This document shows positions 3,090 through 46,733 of a stretch of DNA of 64,000 bases, piece after piece; within the stretch, counting starts at the first letter, position 1; the number at the start of each line of letters is the position of its first letter. The DNA comes from an uncultured Planctomycetota bacterium. Its GTDB lineage: Bacteria; Planctomycetota; Planctomycetia; Isosphaerales; Isosphaeraceae. The stretch is from assembly GCA_963737655.1 (NCBI GenBank), contig CAVTTN010000002.1, positions 704,001-768,000 on the forward strand. The letters are read 5' to 3'. A program made the translations under genes and the position numbers. The notes beneath the pieces were generated by a model that was not told where the DNA came from, ran no database searches, and worked only from the letters and a program-made list of their open reading frames with translations.

Positions 3090-4331
3090 TCAATCCAGTC
3101 GAGACTGGCTGAAGCTGGTGATGTTGTCGCTCTCCCGGCTCCGCAGGCCCTGGGGCACGGCGAAGAGGGTGCCGAACGTCGTGAAGTAGTCGGGCAGGGG
3201 CGTCTGCGACCCGGCCTGGTACTGCCCTCCGGCGCCGAAGTAGCGGTCGCCCCCGGCGGAGATGATCTGGAAGCTCGACGCGTTGATGTACGACGCCGGC
3301 TGGTTCGGGTCGAACGCGCTGGCGCCGCTGACCGGGGTGGGCAGGCTGGACGTGTACGGGTTGGGCGCCGGCGAATACGTGGTGGCGTTCGGCGTGCTGG
3401 CCGGGACCAGCGGCGAGCCGATCCGGAAGTACGTGCCGACGGTGTTCCCCGAGTCGTCGAGCTCGGCCCCGTTGCAGTCGTTCGGGTCGTAGCCCACGCC
3501 GGGGTAGGCGGCGAAGTAGGCGTAGAACCGGGAGTCGGCCCCGGTTCCCTGGGTGTCGATGTAGCCCGGGATGCCGTCGCCGTCGTCGTCGAGCAGCCGG
3601 TTGGGCTGGAACTCGTACAGCGGGTTGGTCCGGTTGGTCGAGGCGATGGCATTGGTGAAGACGAACTGCGGGTGCCGCCCGAAGCCCGACATCCCGTAGC
3701 TGATCGAGCCGTCGGCGTTGGCCGTCGGGCTCGGGATGCCGCCGAGGAAGAACACCAGGCACTCATATCCTTCCAGAAGGATGAAGCCCGGATCCTGGTT
3801 GGCGTTGCCGTTGTAGTCCGGCCAGTAGGTCGTCGTCCCGTTGACGACCACGGGCCCGAGGAACCCCCTCGGGAAGTACCGCCTCAGGGCCCGGAGCGAG
3901 CGATTGGCCAGCTCGCCGAACGAGATGTCCGGCGTCCCGAAGTTCGTCGCCGGGAGGGAGCCGGTGGTCCCCCCGCCGAGATACCAGCTGCTCACCCCGG
4001 AGAGGCTCGTGGAGAAGTCGCCGGAGACCGGGATGTTCACCCCTCCGTTGCTGATCGTCACGCTGGACTGGGCGCTGTAGTTGCCCGTCTCGCTCAGGAC
4101 CACGCGGCTGGGCGGGTACTCGCCATAGGTGTTCTTGAACGAGGCCAGGCCCGAGGCGAGCGTCTGGATGTCGGCGCTGATCCTCGCCTCGTTCGCCTTG
4201 CGGATCGCGCCGACGATCACCGGCAGGAGCAGGGCGACGAGGATGCCGATGATCACGATCACGACCATCAGCTCCACCAGGGTGAAGCCGGGCCGGCGGC
4301 GGCGGGGGATTCTCCGTCTCGAGAGCTGCAT
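3090..4331 (-). CDS. GspG/PulG-like pilin/pseudopilin
   Basis: AGGAGG then ATG 4331; MQLSRRRIPRRRRPG|FTLVELMVVIVIIGIL; FKNTYGEYP; C-terminal FQIISAGGD...DNI typical of GspG-like proteins. Confidence 0.88.
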   Translation of the reverse strand: MQLSRRRIPRRRRPGFTLVELMVVIVIIGILVALLLPVIVGAIRKANEARISADIQTLASGLASFKNTYGEYPPSRVVLSETGNYSAQSSVTISNGGVNIPVSGDFSTSLSGVSSWYLGGGTTGSLPATNFGTPDISFGELANRSLRALRRYFPRGFLGPVVVNGTTTYWPDYNGNANQDPGFILLEGYECLVFFLGGIPSPTANADGSISYGMSGFGRHPQFVFTNAIASTNRTNPLYEFQPNRLLDDDGDGIPGYIDTQGTGADSRFYAYFAAYPGVGYDPNDCNGAELDDSGNTVGTYFRIGSPLVPASTPNATTYSPAPNPYTSSLPTPVSGASAFDPNQPASYINASSFQIISAGGDRYFGAGGQYQAGSQTPLPDYFTTFGTLFAVPQGLRSRESDNITSFSQSRLD

Positions 4332-4490
4332 CGGCCGGGCCTCCTGAGCGAGCGGGTCGATCGGTCGGATACGCATTCGGGGAACTTGACTTCAGGGCGC
4401 ACCGGGGGCGGGGGCCGACATCGGCGGCCCTCACGCCCGGACGAGACGAGAGGATCGTTCACGCGAACATTTTCGCGATCGGGCCCGCGA

Positions 4491-5753
4491 TCAGCCCGAA
4501 AGCTTGCTGATGAGCTGGATCAAGGGCAGGAACAGGGCGATGACGATGAACCCGATGATCCCGCCGAGGACGACGATCATGATCGGCTCCAGCAGGCTCA
4601 CGAGCGAGTCCACCAGCACCTCCACCTCTTCCTCGTAGTTGTCGGCGATCTTGTTGAGCATGGTGTCCAAATCGCCGGTTTCCTCGCCGACGTCGATCAT
4701 GTTCACGACGATGTCATCGACGATCCGCGACTCCCGGAGCGGCTGGGCGATCGTCTCGCCCTCGCGGATGCTCTCGTAGATCCTCTGGAACGCCCTCTCG
4801 AACACCGCGTTGCCGGCGGTGTCCTTGACGATGTTCAGCGACTCCAGGATCGGCACGCCCGACTGCACGAGCGTCCCCAGGGTCCTCATCGTCCGGGCCA
4901 CGGTGGACTTCTCGACGATCGTCCCCATGACCGGGATGAACAGCATCAATTTATCTAAAATATACGCGCCCGTCTTGTTCCGATACATGAGCTTGATGAA
5001 GACCCAGATCAGGAACGGGATCAGGATCACCAGCCAGAACTTCTGGACGACGACGTGGCTGGCCTTGATCAGGAAGATGGTCATCCCCGGCAGGTCCACG
5101 CCGAAGTCGGCGAAGATGGCCTCGAACTTGGGGATGATGAAGTAGAGGATGAAGCCGACGATCACCACGGCGACGAGGATCACGACGATCGGGTAGACCA
5201 TCGCGCCCTTGACGCGTCGCTTGAGGGTCTGGGCCTTCTCCTTGAAGTCGGCGAGCCTCTGGAGGATGGCCTCCAGGGCGCCGCCGGCCTCGCCGGCCTT
5301 GATCATGTTGCAGTAGAGCTTGTCGAACGCCTTGGGGTGCTTGGCGAAGGCTTCGGACAGGGTGGAGCCGCTCTCGATGTCCTCGACGACGTCCGCCAGC
5401 GAGTTCTTCAGGACGCCCGGCTTGCACTGGCCCTCGAGGATCTTGAGGCTCCGCAGCAGGGGCAGGCCGGCGTCCTGCAAGGTCGAGAGCTGGCGGGTGA
5501 ACAGGCACAATTGCTTGTTCGAGATCTTGCCGATCGTGAACGCCTTCTTCTTCTTCCGGCCGCCGGCCCCCTTCTTCGCCTGGGCGGGCCCCTTCTTCCC
5601 CTTGCCCGACTTGGCCGTCCGTTCGGCGATCTTCGTGACGAAGAACCCCTTCTGACGGATCAGTTGCTGGGCCTCCTCCTGGGTGGAGGCGTCGATGGTG
5701 TCCTTCACTTCCTTGCCGGTGTGGTCCATCGCCTCGAACTGAAACGTCGGCAT
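4491..5753 (-). CDS. pilC: Type IV pilus/T2SS inner-membrane platform protein PilC/GspF
   Basis: FTRQLSTLQDAGLPL, GEAGGALE..L.RLA, YP, GEETGDLD.ML motifs; three TM segments. Confidence 0.95.
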   Translation of the reverse strand: MPTFQFEAMDHTGKEVKDTIDASTQEEAQQLIRQKGFFVTKIAERTAKSGKGKKGPAQAKKGAGGRKKKKAFTIGKISNKQLCLFTRQLSTLQDAGLPLLRSLKILEGQCKPGVLKNSLADVVEDIESGSTLSEAFAKHPKAFDKLYCNMIKAGEAGGALEAILQRLADFKEKAQTLKRRVKGAMVYPIVVILVAVVIVGFILYFIIPKFEAIFADFGVDLPGMTIFLIKASHVVVQKFWLVILIPFLIWVFIKLMYRNKTGAYILDKLMLFIPVMGTIVEKSTVARTMRTLGTLVQSGVPILESLNIVKDTAGNAVFERAFQRIYESIREGETIAQPLRESRIVDDIVVNMIDVGEETGDLDTMLNKIADNYEEEVEVLVDSLVSLLEPIMIVVLGGIIGFIVIALFLPLIQLISKLSG

Positions 5754-7793: not shown

Positions 7794-8903
7794 TCAATCC
7801 TCCTCCTCGGCCTCGTCGTCGTCCTCGAAGATCCCCTTCTTGGCCAGCTCGATCCGCTCCTTCAGCTCGGCGACCTTGCGGGCCTTGTAGAGGACCTCGT
7901 CCTCCTCCACCAGACCCTGCCTCCAGAGGTTGAAGAGCGAGTCGTCCAGGAGGATCATCCCGTGCTTCCGCCCGGTCTGGATCGAGCTGTCGATCCGGTA
8001 CGTCTTGTTCTCGCGGATCAGGTTGGAGATGGCCGGGGTGACGACGAGCATCTCGTACGCGGCCACCAGCCCCTTGGGCTTCCTCGGCAGCAGCGCCTGG
8101 GCCAGGATGCCGATGATCGCCACCGAGAGCTGGGTGCGGATCTGGTCCTGCTGCTCCTTGGGGAACACGTCGATGATCCGGTTGACCGTCCCCTCGGCCG
8201 AGTTCGTGTGGAGGGTGCCGAAGACGATGTGCCCGGTCTCGGCCGCGGTGATCGCCGCCGAGATCGTCGCCAGGTCCCGCATCTCGCCCACGAGGATGAT
8301 GTCCGGGTCCATCCGCAGGGCCCGCTTGATCGCCTCGGGGAAGTCCGGCACGTCGATCCCGATCTCCCGCTGGTTCACCAGGGACTTCTGGTGCTTGTGG
8401 TAATACTCGATCGGGTCCTCGATGGTGATGATGTGGCGGTCCATGTTGTTGTTGATCCAGTTGATCATGGACGCCAGGCTCGTCGTCTTGCCCGAACCCG
8501 TCGGCCCGGTCACGAGGATGAGCCCCCGGGGCCGCGTGATCAACTGCTCGATGACCGCCGGCAGCCCCAGCTGCTCGAACGTCAGGAATTCGTTGGGAAT
8601 CCTCCGAAGGACCAGCCCGATGTTGCCTCGTTGCTTGAACACCGCCACGCGGAACCGCGCCATGTCCCCGAAGGCGAACCCGAAGTCGGTCCCGCCGACC
8701 TCCTGGAGCTCCTGCTGACAGCGCTCGGGCGTGATGCTCTTCATCAGCGCCGAGGTATCCGCCGGCTCCAGGATCTTGGTCGCCAGGGGCCTCATGTGGC
8801 CGTGGAGCCGCAAGGTCGGCTGCGCGCCCACCGTCAGGTGGAGGTCGCTGGCCTTCTGGGTGACCGTCGTCTGCAACAGCTTGTCGATGAGGAGCGTGCC
8901 CAT
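7794..8903 (-). CDS. pilT: PilT retraction ATPase
   Basis: Start MGTLLIDKLL at 8903; ASDLHL, GPTGSGKTT, TIEDPIE, QREIG.D, LRMDPDIILVGEMRD, AISNLIRE (AIRNLIRE-like). Confidence 0.93.
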   Translation of the reverse strand: MGTLLIDKLLQTTVTQKASDLHLTVGAQPTLRLHGHMRPLATKILEPADTSALMKSITPERCQQELQEVGGTDFGFAFGDMARFRVAVFKQRGNIGLVLRRIPNEFLTFEQLGLPAVIEQLITRPRGLILVTGPTGSGKTTSLASMINWINNNMDRHIITIEDPIEYYHKHQKSLVNQREIGIDVPDFPEAIKRALRMDPDIILVGEMRDLATISAAITAAETGHIVFGTLHTNSAEGTVNRIIDVFPKEQQDQIRTQLSVAIIGILAQALLPRKPKGLVAAYEMLVVTPAISNLIRENKTYRIDSSIQTGRKHGMILLDDSLFNLWRQGLVEEDEVLYKARKVAELKERIELAKKGIFEDDDEAEEED

Positions 8904-9237
8904 GAAACTCCCTGTCCCCCGCGAAGGACCCTCGACACGGGAGCCGTCCGGGCCCCATCGTCCGAGGACTTGACTTTGTCTCGCAATCCAGATGTCCGGC
9001 CGAACGCAGCGGGGGAGATTTGAGTTACGACGAGAGGACGAGCGTCCCTGTCGCACTCGCATTATTCGGGCGGACTCTCCGAAGACAAGCGCCTTCTCGC
9101 CCGAACCTGCGCCCCCTCGGGACGTTTCACGCGGGCCGAGGGTCCCCACGGAGGCCCGCGACCCCCCGAGTTCGACCCAAAGACGCACGGGCCGAGGGGC
9201 GCCGGGAAGCCCCTCGGCCCGCGGTTGGGTCGCCGAC

Positions 9238-10962
9238 TCAGCCCACCCCGGCCAGAGACTCGTGGTGGGTGATCCGCAAGACCTCGTCGATGGTGGTCAA
9301 ACCCTTCATCGCCTTGATCATGCCGTCCTCGAAGAGAGTGCGCATCCCCTGTTTCCGGGCCGCTTTGCGGATCACCTGGGTCGGCTCCCCCTTGAACGTC
9401 ATCTCGCGGATCGTGTTGGTCATCGACATCAGCTCGTAGATGCCCATCCGTCCACGATAGCCCGACTTGCTGCAATAGGTGCAGCCCTTGCCCTTCATGA
9501 AATTCGCCTTCTTGGCCAGCTCCGGGCGAAGGCCCAAACTCTGGAGGATGTGGCCCGGCGGCTCATACCGGACGCGGCACTTCGGGCAGACCTTCCTCAC
9601 CAGACGCTGGGCCATGATCCCCATGACGGACGAGGCCACCAGGAACGGCTGGACCCCGATATCGACCAGTCTCGTAACAGCACTGGGCGCATCGTTCGTG
9701 TGCAGCGTACTGAAAACCAGGTGTCCGGTCAGGGAGGCCTGGATCGCCGTATTCGCGGTCTCCTCGTCGCGAATCTCGCCCACCAGGAGGATGTTGGGAT
9801 TCTGCCGGAGCATGGCACGGATGATGCGTGCAAACGTCATCCCAATCTTGGCTCGAACCTCGCACTGATTGATGCCGGGCAGGTAGTACTCGACCGGGTC
9901 CTCGGCGGTGATGATCTTGACGTCCGGCCGGTTCAGCTCGTTCAGGGCGGCGTACAGGGTGGTGGTCTTGCCCGACCCGGTCGGCCCGGTCACGAGCAAG
10001 ATGCCGTTGGGCCTCTTGATGAGCTGCGAGAACCTCTTCCAGTCCTCGTCGCCGAAGCCCAGGTCGCGGAGGCCGACCTTGATGTTCTCGCGATCGAGGA
10101 TCCGCATGACGACCGACTGTCCATGCACGGTTGGGATGATGGAGACTCGCAGGTCGATGTCCTTGCCGGCGACGTGGACCTTGATCCGGCCGTCCTGGGG
10201 TCGGCGCTTCTCGGCGATGTCGATCGAGCCCATGATCTTGAGCCGGGAGACCATCGAGCCGAGGAGGCGGCGGGGGGGCGAGTCGCGTTCCATGCAGACG
10301 CCGTCGATCCGATAGCGGATGCGGACGCGGTCGGCGAACGGCTCGATGTGGATGTCCGAGGCCCTCATCGCCACGGCTTCCTGGATGATCAGCTGGACGA
10401 GCCGGATGACCGGGGCGTCCCCCTCGTCGACGCCCCCCGCGCCGCTCCGGCTGCTGCCCCCGCCTTCGTCGGAGAAGTCGATGGCCGTGTCGGTGAATTC
10501 CTGGAGCATCGAGTCGACGGACTCGGTCTCCTGGGAGCTCGACCCGTAATAGCGGTTGATCGCCTCGACGATCGCTTCCTTGGGGGCCAGGGCCATGGTG
10601 ATCTCGCGGTTCAGGACGAACCGGAGCTTCTCGATGGTCTCGAAGTTCAGCGGGTCATGCATGATGACCTTGATCACGCCGTTGTCCTGGGACATCGGCA
10701 TGACGATGTTCTCGCGGGCGAGCGATTCGGGGATCAGCTCGACGACGCCCGAGGGGATCTCGACCTCGCTGAGGTCGACGTAATCCATGTTATGCTGCTC
10801 GGCCTTCGCCTTCATGATCTGGTCGGGATCGGCGTAGGTGAGCTTGACCAGGGCATCCTCGACGTTGACGCCCTTGATGCCCTGGGCCTCCTTCAACTGG
10901 TCGGGGCCGATGACCCCGCGACGGATGAGGATGTCGGTCCACTCGCGGCTCTGCTTGGCCAT
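9238..10962 (-). CDS. PilB/GspE assembly ATPase (copy 2)
   Basis: ASDIHIEP, PQDGRI, GPTGSGKTTT, EDPVEY, LRQNPNILLVGEIRD, CPKC...CTYC. Confidence 0.93.
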   Translation of the reverse strand: MAKQSREWTDILIRRGVIGPDQLKEAQGIKGVNVEDALVKLTYADPDQIMKAKAEQHNMDYVDLSEVEIPSGVVELIPESLARENIVMPMSQDNGVIKVIMHDPLNFETIEKLRFVLNREITMALAPKEAIVEAINRYYGSSSQETESVDSMLQEFTDTAIDFSDEGGGSSRSGAGGVDEGDAPVIRLVQLIIQEAVAMRASDIHIEPFADRVRIRYRIDGVCMERDSPPRRLLGSMVSRLKIMGSIDIAEKRRPQDGRIKVHVAGKDIDLRVSIIPTVHGQSVVMRILDRENIKVGLRDLGFGDEDWKRFSQLIKRPNGILLVTGPTGSGKTTTLYAALNELNRPDVKIITAEDPVEYYLPGINQCEVRAKIGMTFARIIRAMLRQNPNILLVGEIRDEETANTAIQASLTGHLVFSTLHTNDAPSAVTRLVDIGVQPFLVASSVMGIMAQRLVRKVCPKCRVRYEPPGHILQSLGLRPELAKKANFMKGKGCTYCSKSGYRGRMGIYELMSMTNTIREMTFKGEPTQVIRKAARKQGMRTLFEDGMIKAMKGLTTIDEVLRITHHESLAGVG

Positions 10963-12182: not shown

Positions 12183-14576
12183 ATGAACGCCTCGTTCGCC
12201 GCTTTCATGCTGGCGGTCGTCGTCCCTCCGGGGTTCGTGGTCGATCGCCGGGCCGAGGGACTCACGGGCGCCACGGCGATGGCGATCTCGCCCGATGGCC
12301 GCCTGTTCGTCTGCGAGCAAACCGGCGCGCTCCGGCTGGTGAAGGACGGCCGCCTCCTGGCCGAGCCGTTCGTCCGCCTTCGCGTCGATTCTCGCTGGGA
12401 GCGCGGGCTGATCGGCGTGGCGATCGACCCGGAATTCCCCCGCGAGCCGTTCGTCTACGTGAACTACGTCGCCGACGCCCCGTTCCCCCACCATCGGATC
12501 TCTCGGTTCACGGCCTCGGGCGACCGGGCCGATCCCGAATCGGAAAAAGTCTTGTTCGAGGGGGGCGACCAGGAGAAGCTCGGCGGCTCGGTCCCCTCCG
12601 GGCACCAGGGAGGCGCGATCCACTTCGGCCGGGACGGCAAGCTCTACGTCGCCCTGGGGGAGCAGACCGCCGGCTCGCCCTCTCAGGACCTCCATTCGCT
12701 CCTGGGCAAGCTGTTGAGGATCGACCGCGACGGCTCGATCCCGGCCGATAACCCGTTCTTCGATCGAACCGAGGGCAAGTACCGGGCGATCTGGTGCCTC
12801 GGGCTGAGGAACCCGTTCGGCTTCGCCGTCGATCCCCTCTCCGGCCGGATCTTCCTGAACGACGTGGGGGGCAACTTCGAGGAGATCAACGAGGCCGGGC
12901 CCGGCCGCAACTTCGGCTGGCCGACCGTCGAGCACGGCCCGACGAAGGATTCCCGGTTCGTCGGCCCGATCCACTGGTATCCGACCAGCTCGATCACCGG
13001 AGGGGCCTTCGCCCCGCGAAGCGGCCCGCTCCCGGCCGAGTGGCGGGGCCGGTATTTCTTCCTCGACTTCATGAAGGGCTGGCTCAGGACGCTCGACCCC
13101 GACCGCCCCGGAGACGTCCGCGAATTCGCCTCCGGGCTCGCCCGGCCGACCGACCTGGCCTTCGCCCCGGACGGTTCGCTGTATGTCTTGCAACGCGATG
13201 CCTGGGTGATCGACAAGGATTTCCGACCAGGGACCGGCTCGGTCCTCCGCGTCCGGTTCGAGCCGGGCCCTGGAACCCTTCCGGAGAGGCCGAAGGATGT
13301 CACCATCGGCCCGGTCCCGCCGTTCCCCACGTTCCTGCCGCCCCCGGGCCGCTTCACCGGGCCGATCCGGGTGAGGATCACCGCGAAATCGCCCGTTCGG
13401 TTCACCCTCGACGGCTCGGAGCCCTCCATCGAGTCGCCGATCGCGACCGGGCCAATCCCTCTGGATCGCTCGGCGACCCTGAAAATCCGCCCATTCCGCG
13501 ATGGCCAGCCGATCGGCCCCGCCCTGACAGCCGAATATCGCATCGGGGGCCGAACCGCGTTCGGGCTCGCCGATCGACCGGAGGCCCCGAGGCTCCCGCT
13601 CTCGCTCGACCCGAACTCCTGGCCGAAACGGCTCTCCGAGGTCGGGGCGTTCGCCGACCTCGCCGCGATGACCCCCGCCCCGGGCTTCGTGCCCTTCGCC
13701 GTGAACAGCCCGTTGTGGTCCGACGGCGCGGCGAAGCGGCGATGGATCGCGTTGCCCGGTGGTGCCACGATCGAATTCCGCCCGACCGGCGAATGGCGGT
13801 TCCCTCGCGGGACCGTCTTCGTGAAGCACTTCGAGATGCCCCGAGAAGGCGCCCCTCCGCGACGCCTGGAAACCCGGATCACCGTGGCCGACGGCTCCGG
13901 CCTCGGCGCCGCGGCCACCTATCGCTGGGGAGAGGACGGCCGGGACGCCGACCTCCTCGCCGACGGGCGAGACGAGGCCATCGCCACCTCTTCCGACGCC
14001 TCACGTCGTCAAACCTGGTCCTATCCCTCGCGTGATGATTGTTTGAAGTGCCACACCAGGGCCGCCGGCTTCGTCCTCGGCCCCAGCGCCCGTCAGCTCA
14101 ACGGGCCGTTTCGTTATCCGACGACCGGCATCGAGGACCATCAAATCCGCTCCTGGAGCGCCCAGGGGATGTTTAGTCGGGCGGTCCCGGACGAGGAAAT
14201 CCCGAAGTTAGCGAGGCTCTCGCCGATCTCGGACGAATCGGCGACGGTCGAGCACCGCATTCGGTCGTATCTCGATTCCAATTGCGCCAACTGCCACCGC
14301 CCCGGCGCGAACATCCCGGCGGCCTTCGATGCCCGATGGGACTGCCCCGAAGCCGACCGCAAGATCCTCGACGCCCGGACCGTCAGCGACGGCCTGGGGA
14401 TCGCCAATCCCAGGGTCGTGGCCCCGGGAGACGTCTCCCGGTCGATGATCCATCAAAGGATCATCCAGACCGAGAGGTACAAGATGCCGCCGGTCGGCAG
14501 GAACGTCGTCGATCGCGGAGCGGCCGACCTCCTGGCCGGGTGGATCGCCGGTCTCGGCGGCTCGAAGTCGAAGTAG
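12183..14576 (+). CDS. PQQ-dependent glucose/sorbosone dehydrogenase-family protein with Fn3/chitobiase-like and c-type cytochrome domains
   Basis: ERGLIGVAIDP, HQGGAIHFGRDGKLY, GLRNPFG, EEIN..GRNFGWP; RFTLDGSEP; VNSPLWSDGAAKRRWI; heme motifs CLKCH and CANCH. Start could also be 12165. Confidence 0.85.
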   Translation: MNASFAAFMLAVVVPPGFVVDRRAEGLTGATAMAISPDGRLFVCEQTGALRLVKDGRLLAEPFVRLRVDSRWERGLIGVAIDPEFPREPFVYVNYVADAPFPHHRISRFTASGDRADPESEKVLFEGGDQEKLGGSVPSGHQGGAIHFGRDGKLYVALGEQTAGSPSQDLHSLLGKLLRIDRDGSIPADNPFFDRTEGKYRAIWCLGLRNPFGFAVDPLSGRIFLNDVGGNFEEINEAGPGRNFGWPTVEHGPTKDSRFVGPIHWYPTSSITGGAFAPRSGPLPAEWRGRYFFLDFMKGWLRTLDPDRPGDVREFASGLARPTDLAFAPDGSLYVLQRDAWVIDKDFRPGTGSVLRVRFEPGPGTLPERPKDVTIGPVPPFPTFLPPPGRFTGPIRVRITAKSPVRFTLDGSEPSIESPIATGPIPLDRSATLKIRPFRDGQPIGPALTAEYRIGGRTAFGLADRPEAPRLPLSLDPNSWPKRLSEVGAFADLAAMTPAPGFVPFAVNSPLWSDGAAKRRWIALPGGATIEFRPTGEWRFPRGTVFVKHFEMPREGAPPRRLETRITVADGSGLGAAATYRWGEDGRDADLLADGRDEAIATSSDASRRQTWSYPSRDDCLKCHTRAAGFVLGPSARQLNGPFRYPTTGIEDHQIRSWSAQGMFSRAVPDEEIPKLARLSPISDESATVEHRIRSYLDSNCANCHRPGANIPAAFDARWDCPEADRKILDARTVSDGLGIANPRVVAPGDVSRSMIHQRIIQTERYKMPPVGRNVVDRGAADLLAGWIAGLGGSKSK

Positions 14577-14603
14577 GCGTCGGGGCGATGCGGCCCTCCG
14601 GGT

Positions 14604-15194
14604 TCAACGTTCCGCGCCCCGGCCCTCGGTGGGCTCGGATTCGCGCTTCGGCTGGACGTTCACCGTCATCGCCTTCCCGAGCAATCGGGGCAGGTGTTCC
14701 ACCGCCGTCTTGAGGTCCGCCTGGTCGTCATCGAGGTAGAAGGTCGTGGGCTCCCGGCCGCGAAGGGTCAGCGACCAGGAGGCGGAATGGGGCGCATCAT
14801 AAGTGCCCGACGGCGGGTCGAGCCGGGACTTGGCCACCTCGCCCGACCCGACCCGGAGGTTCGTCGGATGGTTGCCCACCGCCTTCGCCGGCCCCTTCGC
14901 GTCGAGCCGGCGCACCGCGGCCCGTTTGGTCAACCAGCCGAGCCCGCCGAGCAGGAGTATGATCGGGATGATCAGAAGCAGGGCAAAGCAACCGTCCGGG
15001 CCCTGCAAGCCCAGGTCCAGCCGGCCTCCGCGAACCAGCCCGAAGACCCAGCGGACCCGGATCAGGTAAAGGGCGTCCGGGCCGACATACACGCGATACA
15101 GGGGCCAGCCCACCTCACCCTTCACCCGGGCGTTGAAGGCGGGCCACTCCCCGAGGGCCCGGATTCGCTCGGTCCCCTCGTCTGGTTCCCCCAT
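14604..15194 (-). CDS. Hypothetical single-TM protein directly downstream of the retron RT (candidate effector or accessory gene)
   Basis: ATG 15194, 22 nt after the RT stop, same strand; 196 aa; hydrophobic CFALLLIIPIILLLGGLGWL followed by basic residues. No family recognised. Confidence 0.65.
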   Translation of the reverse strand: MGEPDEGTERIRALGEWPAFNARVKGEVGWPLYRVYVGPDALYLIRVRWVFGLVRGGRLDLGLQGPDGCFALLLIIPIILLLGGLGWLTKRAAVRRLDAKGPAKAVGNHPTNLRVGSGEVAKSRLDPPSGTYDAPHSASWSLTLRGREPTTFYLDDDQADLKTAVEHLPRLLGKAMTVNVQPKRESEPTEGRGAER

Positions 15195-15216
15195 GTCTCG
15201 ATTCGCTCCGCCCGCC

Positions 15217-16557
15217 CTACCCGGACTGTTCCGGGTCCCGGTCCCTCCAGTCGATGCGACCGAACATCTCATGCAACTTTCGGCCCCGATCGGGATGAAG
15301 CGAGGCGACATGGGCGATCCGGCCCAGCAGATGCGCCCGGAAATCGTCGTGAGGCCGTCGATTCTGCCCGAGAGGGCCGTGCCTCACGCAGTTGTGAAGG
15401 ATCGCCTTCAACGTGTCGTAGTCGCCACGAACCACATTGGGCCGCTCGTTGAGCACCACGCCCGCGACCCGCTGGCGGACGCCCCGTCTCATGATCCGCG
15501 TCTTGCGCGTGTGGACCTCGAACCCCTCTTCCAGCGCGATGGCGCCGACCTGGATGGAGAATCGGCCGACGGATCGCTCGAAATCCCGATCGCCGGAGAA
15601 GGCCAGGTCGTCGGCATAGCGGGTGTAACGGGCCCCCGAGGACTCGGCCAGGGCGGAGAGGCGGACGTCCAGGCGATGGGCGGCCAGGTTGGCCAGGGCC
15701 GGGGAGGTTGGCGCCCCCTGGGGCAGGTGGGGATGCTCATGGAGACGGCGAAACCGCCAGGAATCGGCCGTCCGGGGAGGGGCCGCGGGATCGTTCCAGA
15801 CCGAGCCCGGCACGCGGTTGGTGGCCAGCCCCGAGAGCAAACGGGCCACCGGCTCGGGATAGCCGGCGGTCAGGAACAGGGCCGTCACCCGGGCCGAGGA
15901 GATCGTCGGAAAGAAGTCCTTCAGGTCCATCTTCAGCACCACGCGACGCCCCACGTGCGGATCGACGAAGGTGCGAATCGATCGACCCGGTCGAAAGCCG
16001 TGGACCGAGTCGTGAGGGGGGATCATCGCCACGATCTCGCGGAGGGCCCGCCTCTGGACCAGCTTCAGGCGAGGCCGGGGGGCTTCGACCAGGCGAAAGG
16101 CCCCCGATCGCTTGGCGACCCAGCGATACGAGTAGCGCCTCGGGGCACCCGCCGGAGACCTCCGCTCAAGCCCCCGGGGATCGGCCAGCCATTCCAGCTC
16201 GCGGAGGCCGATTTGGAGCTGATCGGCCAGGGCCGAGGGGGTCGTCAACGGCGGGACCGGCCAGGAGGACGGCAAGCCCGGGGCGGGCCACATCACGGCC
16301 GGCGGATCGAGCGGCCGAGGCCCCGTCCGCAAGTCGGGCAATCCGGCGCAACCGCGACAAAACCCCCGATCCCGCAGAAAGAAATCGACCAGCCGCCCCG
16401 AGGTCGGGCGAGTCGGAGTCGCAAATTCCACCAGGACCCGCCGGAGGAGCGAAGCCATCCACCGAGGCCGCCGACCCAGGGCCGATCGCGCCCTCTCCGC
16501 AAGGTCTTCCTTCCGCCAGGGGCCCAGGACCAGGGCCTCGGCCAGGCGACGAGCCAC
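15217..16557 (-). CDS. Retron-type reverse transcriptase (446 aa)
   Basis: KRSGAFRLVEAPRPRLKLVQR, VHGFRPGRSI, KMDLKDFFPTI, LPQGAPTSPALAN, YTRYADDLAFSG, KTRIM, QRVAGVVLN (retron region Y, VTG-like). No maturase or endonuclease domain. Confidence 0.93.
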   Translation of the reverse strand: MARRLAEALVLGPWRKEDLAERARSALGRRPRWMASLLRRVLVEFATPTRPTSGRLVDFFLRDRGFCRGCAGLPDLRTGPRPLDPPAVMWPAPGLPSSWPVPPLTTPSALADQLQIGLRELEWLADPRGLERRSPAGAPRRYSYRWVAKRSGAFRLVEAPRPRLKLVQRRALREIVAMIPPHDSVHGFRPGRSIRTFVDPHVGRRVVLKMDLKDFFPTISSARVTALFLTAGYPEPVARLLSGLATNRVPGSVWNDPAAPPRTADSWRFRRLHEHPHLPQGAPTSPALANLAAHRLDVRLSALAESSGARYTRYADDLAFSGDRDFERSVGRFSIQVGAIALEEGFEVHTRKTRIMRRGVRQRVAGVVLNERPNVVRGDYDTLKAILHNCVRHGPLGQNRRPHDDFRAHLLGRIAHVASLHPDRGRKLHEMFGRIDWRDRDPEQSG

Positions 16558-16581
16558 GCGGCGGGTTCGCGAAGGATAAGA

Positions 16582-16754
16582 CAGCGGCGGCGCTCCAACC
16601 CGTCTCGTCCGGCGTGAGCAGTTCTACGTGAAGCGTAGTCCCGCTCACGCCTCGCCTGGGACCAAATCAAACGCTCCCCCGGGGTAACCCCGGAGAGGTG
16701 GGAAGCCATCGCGAGACGGCCGAACCACCCGCTTGGAAAACGCCGCCGCTGATC
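16582..16754 (-). ncRNA. Retron msr-msd non-coding RNA
   Basis: Perfect 11-bp terminal IR cagcggcggcg (16582-16592) / cgccgccgctg (16741-16751), extended by tccaa (16594-16598) / ttgga (16733-16737). An unpaired G follows in AAGC context (16732). Two msr hairpins (16697-16729, 16679-16693) and one msd hairpin (16611-16651). Lies just upstream of the RT. Confidence 0.85.
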
Positions 16755-16759
16755 CGCTG

Positions 16760-16788
16760 AACATAAGGGCGACCTCGACGGATGTCAA
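16760..16788 (-). promoter_or_regulatory. Sigma70-type promoter of the retron
   Basis: Minus strand TTGACA (16788-16783), 17 nt, TATGTT (16765-16760). Predicted start ~16754-16753, 2-3 nt before the 5' IR arm. Confidence 0.8.
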
Positions 16789-16924
16789 GGTCTTTCGATC
16801 CTTCCCGAACGACCGCAAAAGGGAGCAACACGGGGAAAGGGAACGTGCCGGAAAGCAGCAATTGCATGCAATGCTTCGCTCCGTCCCCCTTGCGCGCCCT
16901 ATACTTCCCCTATCGCCGCCTGCT

Positions 16925-16945
16925 CGTGGTCACGCATTGACCACG
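16925..16945. terminator. Hairpin just after the FG-GAP gene (possible terminator or stability hairpin)
   Basis: cgtggtca-cgcat-tgaccacg, 8-bp stem; no U-tract. Confidence 0.35.
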
Positions 16946-16967
16946 TCACGAGGAGGCCAAAGGTCTT

Positions 16968-18857
16968 CTACGGAGCCTTCCTGACCTGTTTTGTGATCCG
17001 ATGCGCGGTCGCCTTCTTGGCAACAGTTGCGGAGTTGGCCATCGGCAGCACGGGGTGACGGTTGAACTGGAACCGCCCCTGGAAGTCGCCCCCGGGTTGG
17101 GCGTTGCCGGTCGGGAACTTGCCCGTGAATTCGCCGTCGAGCGCCTTGCCCGCGAGGTCGACGATGCCTCCGGAATGGACCACGATCACGTATCGCCCGT
17201 GGCGCAGAGGGCGACCGCCGTTGATCGTCAGCGCCACGGTCCGCGACGTGCCGTCCAATCCCGAGACGCTCACGCCCGTGATCGCGACGGGCTTGTGACC
17301 GAACGATGAGAACGGGCCAAGCACCGCGTAATTCGCCACGGTGGTCAGCGACGCCAGGTCCAGGCCGTTCGGGGCGGAGAACGTGAGGAGCACTTGCCCC
17401 CTGGCGTATTGGACGGTCGCCGCCGTGATCTGGGGCCCGTCGCTACTGACCGGGGTACTGCCCGACGAACCACTTCCGGACGAATCGCTGCCGGACGATC
17501 CGCCGCCGGACGATCCGCCGCCGGACGAACCGCCGCCGGACGAACCGCCGCCGGACGAACCGCCGCCGGACGATCCGCCGCCGGACGATCCGCTGTCGGA
17601 CGATCCCGTGCCGGTGAGGAGGATTCCAACCTCGGCCGGGTTGGTTGTGACGGTCATCAGGTCGGCGAGGCCGTCGCCGTTGAGGTCGCCGGCCGCCAGG
17701 TCGCTCGCGCCATTGAACCCGACGCTGGGGACCGGGATGGGGGCGCTTGTGACGAAATGGCCATCGCCGCTCCCTGGCGCGACGCGGACCTCGTTCAGCG
17801 GATACGTCGGGACCGCCAGATCGATCTTGCCGTCGCCGTTGAAGTCGCCTGCCACCAGCGTGCCCGACGCGGCCCCGAACCCGACGAAGGCGTTGGGAAT
17901 TGCGGCGAACGTGCCGTCGCCGATGCCGCCCAGGACGATCACGCTCCCATCGTCCTGGTTCACGGCCGCCAGGTCGAGCTTGCCGTCGCCGTTGAAATCC
18001 GCCCGGACCAGGCTCGAGGATGCGAAGCCGATCGGGGTCGTCCCGCCCAGGCGGAACGTGCCGTCGCCGTTGCCCAGAAAGGTTTGTTCCGAGGTCGAGT
18101 TGAGCGTGACCCCCGCCAGGTCGAGCTTGCCATCGCCGTTGAAGTCACCGGCCACCAGTCCGGGCGCCACGGCGGTCGAGAGGCCGAGGTCCCCGGCCGA
18201 CCCCGCCGCGTGGAGCGTCCCGTCCCGCTCGCCCAGGAAAGCCAGGACCGGACCGGTCACCGGGCCGATGGGCGGAGGGGAACCGGGTTGGGCGAAGGGC
18301 GGCGGTGGGCCGGACATGAGCTTGGCCCCGTACGCCACGGCGAGGTCCGAGACCCCGTCGCCGTTGAAGTCGCCCGCCACGAGGCGCGTGGGGACGGGGT
18401 AGCTCGGGTCGATCACCCCGAAGCCCGGGGCCGTCGCCCCCAGCTGGAACGTGCCGTCGCCGTTGCCCAGGAACTCGATCACGATCGCGTTGTTGCTCGC
18501 GTCGACCCCCGTCGAGGCCACGTCGAGCTTGCCGTCGCCGTTGAAGTCCCCCACGGCGAGATTCCCGCTCAGGGCGGGCGTGGCCGTGTCAAAGGAGCCG
18601 ATGAACCCGCCCTTGCCGTCCCCCAGCAGGGTCGTGATCACCCCTCCCTGGGCTGATCCGTTGTATTGCGGCGTTTCCGTCACAACGTCGAGCTTGCCGT
18701 CGCCGTTGAAGTCGCCCGTCGCGACCGAATTCGCGCCGGTGGCCACCGGGTAGACCACCGCCGGGCGGAACGCAACCGTCAGGAGCAGACGGGCTTCGAG
18801 CCCGTCGAGGACCGGGCGAACGCTCTGCGGAAGTCGGTTTCGAGGCTTCAGGTTCAT
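16968..18857 (-). CDS. Secreted FG-GAP/VCBS repeat protein with planctomycete LEPR-XLL-like N-terminus
   Basis: RPVLDGLEARLLL; seven (G/A)D(F/L)NGDG..D repeats; Gly/Ser linker; C-terminal DLAGKALDGE...GGDF domain. Confidence 0.9.
   Translation of the reverse strand: MNLKPRNRLPQSVRPVLDGLEARLLLTVAFRPAVVYPVATGANSVATGDFNGDGKLDVVTETPQYNGSAQGGVITTLLGDGKGGFIGSFDTATPALSGNLAVGDFNGDGKLDVASTGVDASNNAIVIEFLGNGDGTFQLGATAPGFGVIDPSYPVPTRLVAGDFNGDGVSDLAVAYGAKLMSGPPPPFAQPGSPPPIGPVTGPVLAFLGERDGTLHAAGSAGDLGLSTAVAPGLVAGDFNGDGKLDLAGVTLNSTSEQTFLGNGDGTFRLGGTTPIGFASSSLVRADFNGDGKLDLAAVNQDDGSVIVLGGIGDGTFAAIPNAFVGFGAASGTLVAGDFNGDGKIDLAVPTYPLNEVRVAPGSGDGHFVTSAPIPVPSVGFNGASDLAAGDLNGDGLADLMTVTTNPAEVGILLTGTGSSDSGSSGGGSSGGGSSGGGSSGGGSSGGGSSGGGSSGSDSSGSGSSGSTPVSSDGPQITAATVQYARGQVLLTFSAPNGLDLASLTTVANYAVLGPFSSFGHKPVAITGVSVSGLDGTSRTVALTINGGRPLRHGRYVIVVHSGGIVDLAGKALDGEFTGKFPTGNAQPGGDFQGRFQFNRHPVLPMANSATVAKKATAHRITKQVRKAP
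17461..17605 (-). repeat. 15-bp tandem repeat encoding a (GGGSS)n linker
   Basis: ccggacga(t/a)ccgccg x6 (17491-17580) plus degenerate flanking copies. Confidence 0.9.
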
Positions 18858-44422: not shown

Positions 44423-44654
44423 GCAGTGGGCAGTGGACCGAGCAGTGGGCAGTGGACCGAGCAGTGGGCAGTGGGCAGTGGGCAGTGGGCAGAGAAGATG
44501 AGGAATATCGAAGGATCGCGACCCCTGCAGGTGCGCTTCCTTGACACTGAGCTTCCCCGACTTCTCTGCCCACTGCCCACTGCCCACTGCCCACTGCCCA
44601 CTGCTCGGTCCACTGCCCACTGCTCGGTCCACTGCCCACTATCTGGTCCACTGC
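44423..44654. repeat. Long inverted repeat made of CAGTGGG heptamers
   Basis: Arms 44423-44497 and 44561-44640 are reverse complements differing by one heptamer unit; 63-bp spacer. Confidence 0.92.
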
Positions 44655-46682: not shown

Positions 46683-46733
46683 AGTGGGCAGTGGGCAGTG
46701 GGCAGTGGGCAGAAAGCAGTGGGCGGTGGGCAG
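46683..46733 (+). repeat. CAGTGGG heptamer tandem repeat
   Basis: agtgggcagtgggcagtgggcagtgggcagaaagcagtgggcggtgggcag; same family as 44423-44654. Confidence 0.85.

Follow-up and report, generated by a model that had tools for sequence, protein, structure and literature searches.

Clade 11 of the retrons ("outgroup" in PADLOC, with msr-msd models A and B) was described by Mestre et al. in 2020 (PMC7736814) as cassettes of msr-msd and RT that stand alone, have more than one consensus RNA, occur mainly in actinobacteria and are perhaps domesticated, and a 2026 survey (PMC13712802) counts clades 11-A and 11-B, planctomycetes included, and rates them low in novelty. Khan et al. in 2024 (PMC10849725) built 18 clade-11 retrons, 9 of them with an RT-DNA vector, and took two on to editing; none of the 18 in their census table is planctomycete, and the planctomycete branch is thus absent from that experimental table. 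In the literature searched, nothing was found that describes the function of clade 11. The anatomy of retron RNAs, including an 8-bp/3-nt recognition hairpin and trimming of the RNA upstream of the branching G, was set out by Simon in 2019 (PMC6868368), where the stems bound by the Ec86 and Ec73 RTs have 8-9 bp and 3-nt loops, and further studies support the parts played by the G, the loop and RNase H (PMC11257497, PMC8989520, PMC8632793, PMC12475279). In type VI retrons the retron RNA controls translation of the effector (bioRxiv 10.1101/2025.10.22.683967).

We analyzed a stretch of 64,000 nucleotides from a planctomycete of the Isosphaeraceae (the window), in which a retron msr-msd RNA lies on the minus strand (16751-16582) just upstream of an intact retron RT gene with a YADD motif. 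The 173-nt stretch concerned (16582..16754) is flanked by a 629-aa FG-GAP repeat gene and the RT gene, both on the minus strand. Judged by its sequence, the locus is a retron, since it combines a YADD RT of the retron class, an ncRNA with paired ends and msr and msd hairpins, and a priming G with an opposing G. It shares with clade 11 the best RT profiles, the grouping with an actinobacterial RT, an ncRNA directly upstream and the lack of an associated gene, but it comes from a planctomycete, and its Shine-Dalgarno (SD) sequence and CUG/UUG start within the 3' arm of the a1/a2 helix go unmentioned in the descriptions of clade 11 drawn on here. Retron-Eco1 (Ec86, type II-A3) provides the best structural match of the RT model and has the same a1/a2 helix, priming G, 8-bp/3-nt recognition hairpin and msd hairpin; in contrast, Ec86 has an effector, and the RT described here has an N-terminal extension of ~100 residues and HxAAH/xAG instead of NAxxH/VTG. 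Type XIII retrons (clade 10, e.g., Mx162) give the next best RT profile, have a long N-terminal extension and are present in the same genome, but they form a separate RT branch with HEAT/SWIM partner genes, and our RNA model gives no match to them. Ec107-like retrons (clade 2) also consist of two parts without a partner gene but differ in RT clade and RNA. In the type VI retron Vpa2, a ribosome binding site and start codon are likewise sequestered in the retron RNA and translation follows the state of the RNA, but there a toxic effector is repressed, in separate stem-loops, whereas here it is the RT itself that is sequestered, by the priming helix. We consider it likely that the locus is a two-part, effector-less clade-11 retron in which the a1/a2 helix buries the SD and the CUG start of the RT, with the RT-msDNA complex as its likely output. 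For the planctomycete branch, the analysis provides an exact, covariation-backed RNA, a promoter and a corrected RT start.

Promoter and fold of the msr-msd RNA

The features of the locus are listed in Table 1. The TTGACA-17-TATGTT sequence is the only promoter-like site in 14400-17000 (0.2 in shuffles), and TTGAC was found in the matching 14-nt interval upstream of the branching G in 26 of 32 family copies, compared to 17/2664 control intervals. Based on this motif, the transcript is predicted to start at about 16754-16752, ~2 nt before the 5' arm. An earlier note on this DNA had described an msr-msd ncRNA with an a1/a2 stem, and this description was borne out, as every helix that it named is present where it had been placed and is backed by the folding ensemble. 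Its retron reading stood. It had missed the promoter, the RT start in the 3' arm and the placement of the RT in the catalogued clade 11, for which covariance models exist outside Rfam.

Table 1. Features of the retron locus, numbered from the first nucleotide of the window
Feature	Position	Strand	Details
-35 hexamer TTGACA, sigma70-type promoter	16783..16788	-	TTGAC conserved in the family
-10 hexamer TATGTT	16760..16765	-	17-nt spacer; 10/12 consensus matches
5' arm of a1/a2 helix	16733..16751	-	11 bp + UUU bulge + 5 bp
Predicted branching (priming) G	16732	-	AAGC context; unpaired probability 0.96; putative role, from retron biochemistry
msr SL1	16697..16729	-	16729-16725/16701-16697 and 16721-16715/16710-16704, loop UCGC; pair probabilities 0.88-0.96
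msr SL2	16677..16695	-	8 bp, 16695-16688/16684-16677, loop UUA
Linker	16652..16676	-	U-rich stretch 16671-16662
msd hairpin	16611..16651	-	9-bp outer stem 16651-16643/16619-16611, internal loop, 5-bp inner stem 16638-16634/16628-16624, 5-nt loop
Opposing G facing the branching G	16599	-	kept in 29/29 aligned rows and 22/22 further loci
3' arm of a1/a2 helix	16582..16598	-	contains GGAG Shine-Dalgarno 16596-16593 and probable CUG start 16584-16582 of the RT
Predicted msDNA, upper limit	16600..16675	+ (plus-strand sequence)	about 65-76 nt; putative, from the anatomy
Clade-11 retron RT	15217..16584	-	455 aa from CUG; 446 aa from GTG 16557

As to the pairing of the two arms, CAGCGGCGGCG in the 5' arm (16751-16741) pairs with 16592-16582 over 11 bp, and UCCAA (16737-16733) pairs with UUGGA (16598-16594) over 5 bp, resulting in a GC-rich helix of 16 bp. 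Pair probabilities were mostly >0.9 over the named helices, with 0.57-0.66 at the ends of SL2. By analogy with other retrons, SL2 is probably the recognition hairpin of the RT, and the linker probably holds the putative stop site of the RT and the RNA:DNA overlap. The DNA copy of the msd hairpin folds likewise (z -3.0). The end at ~16670 that had been proposed for the msDNA cannot be predicted, because RT-DNA ends are not predictable (Khan et al., PMC10849725).

The minus strand showed a minimum free energy of -102.1 kcal/mol (z -6.3), and 0/200 shuffles were as stable. Since the plus strand folds as well (z -6.7), folding alone does not assign the strand, and the minus-strand assignment therefore follows from the orientation of the RT, the promoter and the homologues. 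None of the 706 GC-matched segments of the 64 kb folds as stably, and six among all 1412 segments do. Perfect 11-bp inverted repeats with arms 100-250 nt apart occur at ~16 other places in this GC-rich window, so that the inverted repeat is not significant by itself and the comparative data carry the case. A search of Rfam returned no family for the RNA, the 4 chance matches all being far below the gathering score. The most stable fold of the window is formed by GCAGTGG-based tandem repeats of 7/19 nt in two arrays that face each other (44423-44654; also 46683-46733), probably an intergenic repeat family. The gene upstream of the retron (16968-18857) encodes an FG-GAP repeat protein of the secreted type, whose (GGGSS)n linker is encoded at 17460-17606.

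Conservation of the RNA and placement of the reverse transcriptase

Upstream RNAs from 29 of 48 loci with a recognizable hairpin were aligned, those with the full-length type of N-terminus being chosen, and the consensus structure (a1/a2, SL2 and two msd stems) was derived from a sequence-only alignment. Covariation among homologues, a check that the earlier note had named beforehand, was present: 94.1% of 866 cells were paired in the 29 aligned homologues and changes on both sides were found in 22 of 30 pairs, while 0/500 shuffles matched the observed pairing and slid controls reached 35-48%. The inner 9 aligned pairs of a1/a2 all covary, compensatory change was found in 10 of 13 pairs of the msd hairpin, and SL2 was paired in 100% of cells with compensatory change in 3/8 pairs. 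Both SL1 and SL2 had been named and both are present in this RNA; SL2 is the conserved hairpin, and SL1 differs between homologues in both length and sequence and is absent from the consensus structure. The branching G, previously placed at 16732, stood in its column in 28/29 aligned rows, the remaining row (L008) being out of register with its AAG two bases further along, and the length from SL2 to the opposing G was 75-80 nt in 28/29 rows.

The covariance model described below returned 30 loci, of which the 22 belonging to genomes not knowingly used in training were examined further; one of them (L170) proved identical to training row L001. In all 22, the best duplex had a G opposite a G at its inner end, with no G required by the search, and an RT was found just downstream of the RNA in 22/22. 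By analogy with Ec86, copying may begin at 16600 rather than at the invariant opposing G (16599). The RT match was frameshifted in 12 of the 22 loci; most of these 12 belong to incomplete assemblies of few contigs, in which errors of sequencing are likely, and real decay is also possible. In one genome (L132:4765-5958; also L104), an IS605-family TnpB element is inserted a few bases past the CUG, between the ncRNA and the RT body; in the same genus, copy L180 is intact and copy L176 is frameshifted.

A covariance model was built from the 29 aligned RNAs and run on genomes and loci. The model gave a single match in the genome of the window and matched the held-out L078 (84 bits), a Burkholderia record (L199, 68 bits) and, at 26-40 bits, 13 sister-group loci, with no match in 60 other loci or in 15 type XIII-like loci (L113-L127). 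Among the genomes of the family, 49/120 were matched, once each, including 13/47 of those of good quality.

The RT carries RVT_1 (PF00078). With the PADLOC profiles it scored 508 bits for RT_other and 481 bits for RT_outgroup, compared to 307 bits for RT_XIII and 170 bits for Ec107-like clade 2; it is below every NCBIfam cut-off, and retron profiles lead there. As far as sequence goes, the RT belongs to Mestre clade 11, catalogued as an effector-less lineage, and the profile placement together with the lack of a recurrent associated gene or fused effector identifies the locus as a stand-alone member. A structure model of the RT (pLDDT 92) had the Ec86 retron RT as its closest fold, and YADD was present in 31/31 aligned proteins. 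The RT has HDSVH in region X and VAG in region Y, where the consensus of the group is HxAAH and xAG/xTG as opposed to NAxxH/VTG; the most conserved H of region X (29/31) and G of region Y (31/31) are retained. A quick tree built from 73 RTs placed it with Burkholderia, acidobacterial and verrucomicrobial RTs and one actinobacterial RT (Tsukamurella, L198) with an SH-aLRT of 99; the type XIII-like RTs fell apart from this group, and the 11 RTs that belong to its own family or lie beside it in the tree formed one branch (SH-aLRT 98). Membership in type XIII was rejected, as neither a clade 10 RT nor HEAT/ARM and SWIM partner genes were found at the locus. The closest database proteins are named Isosphaeraceae, and relatives number thousands.

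In the predicted structure, the N-terminal 85 residues of the RT form five helices that are well folded and conserved, and this domain had no match in Pfam or Foldseek. Several leads were rejected: an Atlas lead reached only 0.77, a HEAT-like assignment came from designed repeats matched by profile only, and the best structural Z of 5.5 is below the level meaningful for helical bundles. Searched alone among proteins of 41-167 aa, the domain returned one short fragment, which does not exclude that it exists as a standalone protein. Three clade-11 RTs of family f24 (L074:814-2739, L076:349-2232 and L079:1498-3456) have an extra N-terminal region of ~200 aa between the ncRNA and the usual N-terminal domain; its first 100 aa, starting RLEAGDWVV, are conserved and are followed by an acidic or low-complexity linker, with no match in Pfam or Atlas, and the region is a candidate fused partner domain. 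In a sister group with a related RNA (L083-L101, L111 and L149-L168; families f2, f57 and f60), the RTs start with an amphipathic-looking MGLFDFL.. helix and not with the five-helix domain. This group was found in 20/20 f2 genomes, several of which carry it at one constant position, with a peptidase gene on one side and genes for a membrane protein and topoisomerase I on the other, suggesting vertical inheritance and a membrane anchor.

Probable start of the RT gene within the priming helix

The 3' arm ends in the CUG, which is in the RT frame 8 nt behind GGAG. Of 32 distinct family copies, the frame could be counted in the 26 that had both a YTG and an N-terminal RT match; of the other six, four had no YTG, one had an insertion and one lacked the N-terminal match. 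The YTG was in the RT frame in 24 of the 26, at distances of 24, 27, 30, 33, 36 and 39 nt, and the two out-of-frame copies (31 nt) are frameshifted ones. Because the family copies are kin, the roughly independent observations are just the six spacer lengths. The in-frame spacers are stop-free, the residue after the YTG is Ser in 15/24, and an ATG, GTG or TTG before the conserved N-terminus is absent in 10/30 family copies. The U of the YTG was kept in 28 copies though its partner was A (15), G (11) or none (2); however, the 3' arm around the YTG is conserved in sequence generally, and the frame is therefore the stronger argument. In this genome, the 16S carries an anti-SD, and SD motifs were found at 479/1260 long genes compared to 113 in the control. 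Taken together, the RT most likely starts at the CUG in the 3' arm. A start at GTG 16557 is possible, but this codon is without an SD and unconserved.

In database gene calls, the start scatters 0-60 residues before the N-terminal motif, with the motif included in 87/120, and the call for the RT of the window is 358 aa; a buried CUG start explains such truncated or overextended calls. Outside its own family, an AUG comes 20-27 nt after the start of the arm, past the helix, so that the overlap between start and helix is lineage-specific. No description of an RT start inside a1/a2 was found in a literature search that had most older papers outside its range, and an RT start signal inside the priming helix is apparently an undescribed feature.

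In the full RNA, the unpaired probability was 0.03 for the SD and 0.02 for the CUG, and it rose to 0.46 and 0.14, respectively, without the 5' arm; these values come from an mRNA-folding calculation, and ribosome exclusion during transcription lies beyond its reach. Because the a1/a2 pairing buries the SD and the CUG, any one transcript probably serves as RT template or as RT message but not as both. We propose that the sigma70-type motifs observed upstream would drive one transcript from the 5' arm through the RT gene, and that its 5' 170 nt would fold into a1/a2, SL1, SL2 and the msd hairpin, in line with the covariation. As in other retrons, the RT would grip SL2, prime from the 2'-OH of G16732 and copy from ~16600 to ~16660-16675, and host RNase H, a gene for which is present in the genome, would strip the template to leave a branched msDNA of ~65-76 nt with a bulged hairpin. 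The RT itself would be translated from the weak CUG with GGAG 8 nt upstream, a step strongly supported by the conservation of the frame. With a1/a2 paired, the folded transcript would be template and not message, keeping the RT scarce, and RT synthesis may be tied to the fate of the RNA.

Tentatively, this arrangement may amount to a translational switch of the RT in the planctomycete clade-11 lineage, in which reverse transcription, cleavage by RNase H and 5'-arm trimming would free the SD and the CUG, so that msDNA synthesis would set the level of RT, with no effector in cis and the N-terminal domain of unmatched fold as the acting part. Alternatively, in the same retron the overlap of the start with the arm may be merely compact packing, ribosomes loading on the nascent 3' arm or on processed RNA with no control of the RT level by the fold. 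This we regard as possible though doubtful: retron ncRNAs in general can contain ribosome binding sites (Khan et al., PMC10849725), in other clade-11 members the start comes 4-10 nt after the arm and a CUG alone would hold translation low, but the 5' arm is made first, the 16-bp helix is predicted to be closed at 0.83-0.99 per pair, and the SD has a median unpaired probability of 0.0006 over the 32 copies, so that some opening route is needed. Through the overlap, control of a retron's own RT via the priming helix can be tested directly, and the buried start matters for expression of such retrons in their native layout.

Neighbors and possible output of the element

Clustering of the ORFs from 50 loci yielded no recurrent partner gene in the close group, shared genes being found as family synteny in the sister group only, and the neighbor genes of the window were not found beside other members. 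The 47 immediate neighbors were varied, with housekeeping or miscellaneous genes that differ even within a genus. A 196-aa membrane-type ORF downstream of the RT (15194-14604) was rejected as an effector, as it had no match in Pfam, PADLOC or NCBIfam and was absent from the other loci. The retron lies outside any defense island; the genes at 7794-10962 of the window are type IV pilus ATPase genes, which from their translations we take to be PilT- and PilB-like.

For the effector-less retron that we favor, the output would most likely be the RT-msDNA complex itself, acting via the N-terminal helical domain of the RT or via a partner encoded elsewhere. Counted against this explanation are the four of 32 copies without a YTG and the two out of frame, the deviations in regions X and Y, and the 12/22 frameshifted RTs. 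The element could instead serve as the sensing half of an anti-phage system, with the N-terminal domain of the RT, or a protein encoded elsewhere in the genome, as the toxic effector, defense being the role of most studied retrons. Its patchy presence in the family (49/120 genomes; 13/47 of good quality), the conserved and well-folded N-terminal domain, and an msDNA length and internal loop conserved as if protein-bound are in keeping with this, but among 98 neighbor proteins from 20 loci only 6 matched PADLOC and none was a retron effector, the N-terminal domain has no Pfam or fold match, and the element is nearly absent from phage records, where one distant RT was the only find; overall, we are inclined to doubt a defense role.

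Domestication, which Mestre et al. (PMC7736814) proposed for clade 11, would mean that the msDNA regulates a host nucleic-acid-binding protein or acts as its decoy. The single copy per genome, the single branch formed by the family RTs in the quick tree, and the sister group's occurrence throughout f2, several times at a fixed housekeeping locus, are what such a non-defense element would show, but it is missing from most of the family genomes searched, its neighbors vary even within a genus and no target was identified, and we rate this reading as rather unlikely. That the locus is a decaying remnant which has lost its effector and persists nearly neutrally is very improbable, given that the promoter, both Gs, the helices, the start codon and the catalytic motif are kept across phyla at 40-67% RT identity, that there are thousands of relatives and that no effector lies beside any examined member of the group, despite the frameshifts in 12/22 further loci, the IS605-type element that separates the RNA from the RT body in one genome and the patchy distribution.

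Other RTs were encountered in the course of these searches. The genome of the window encodes a second, type XIII-like retron RT (G000:C2:6187182-6188468; L070, L123) downstream of HEAT-repeat-like ORFs, the frame of which continues for 1381 codons over an opposite-strand kinase gene. A fragmented RT (G000:C2:4064471-4066474; L071) lies beside an FGE/sulfatase-type gene and an Asn-rich repeat, and together these presumably resemble the remnant of a diversity-generating retroelement. On one small contig, a type XIII-like RT and a clade-11 retron are found 3 kb apart (L134:386-1324 and 4048-5358), and at another locus (L164) two RTs are arranged in tandem.
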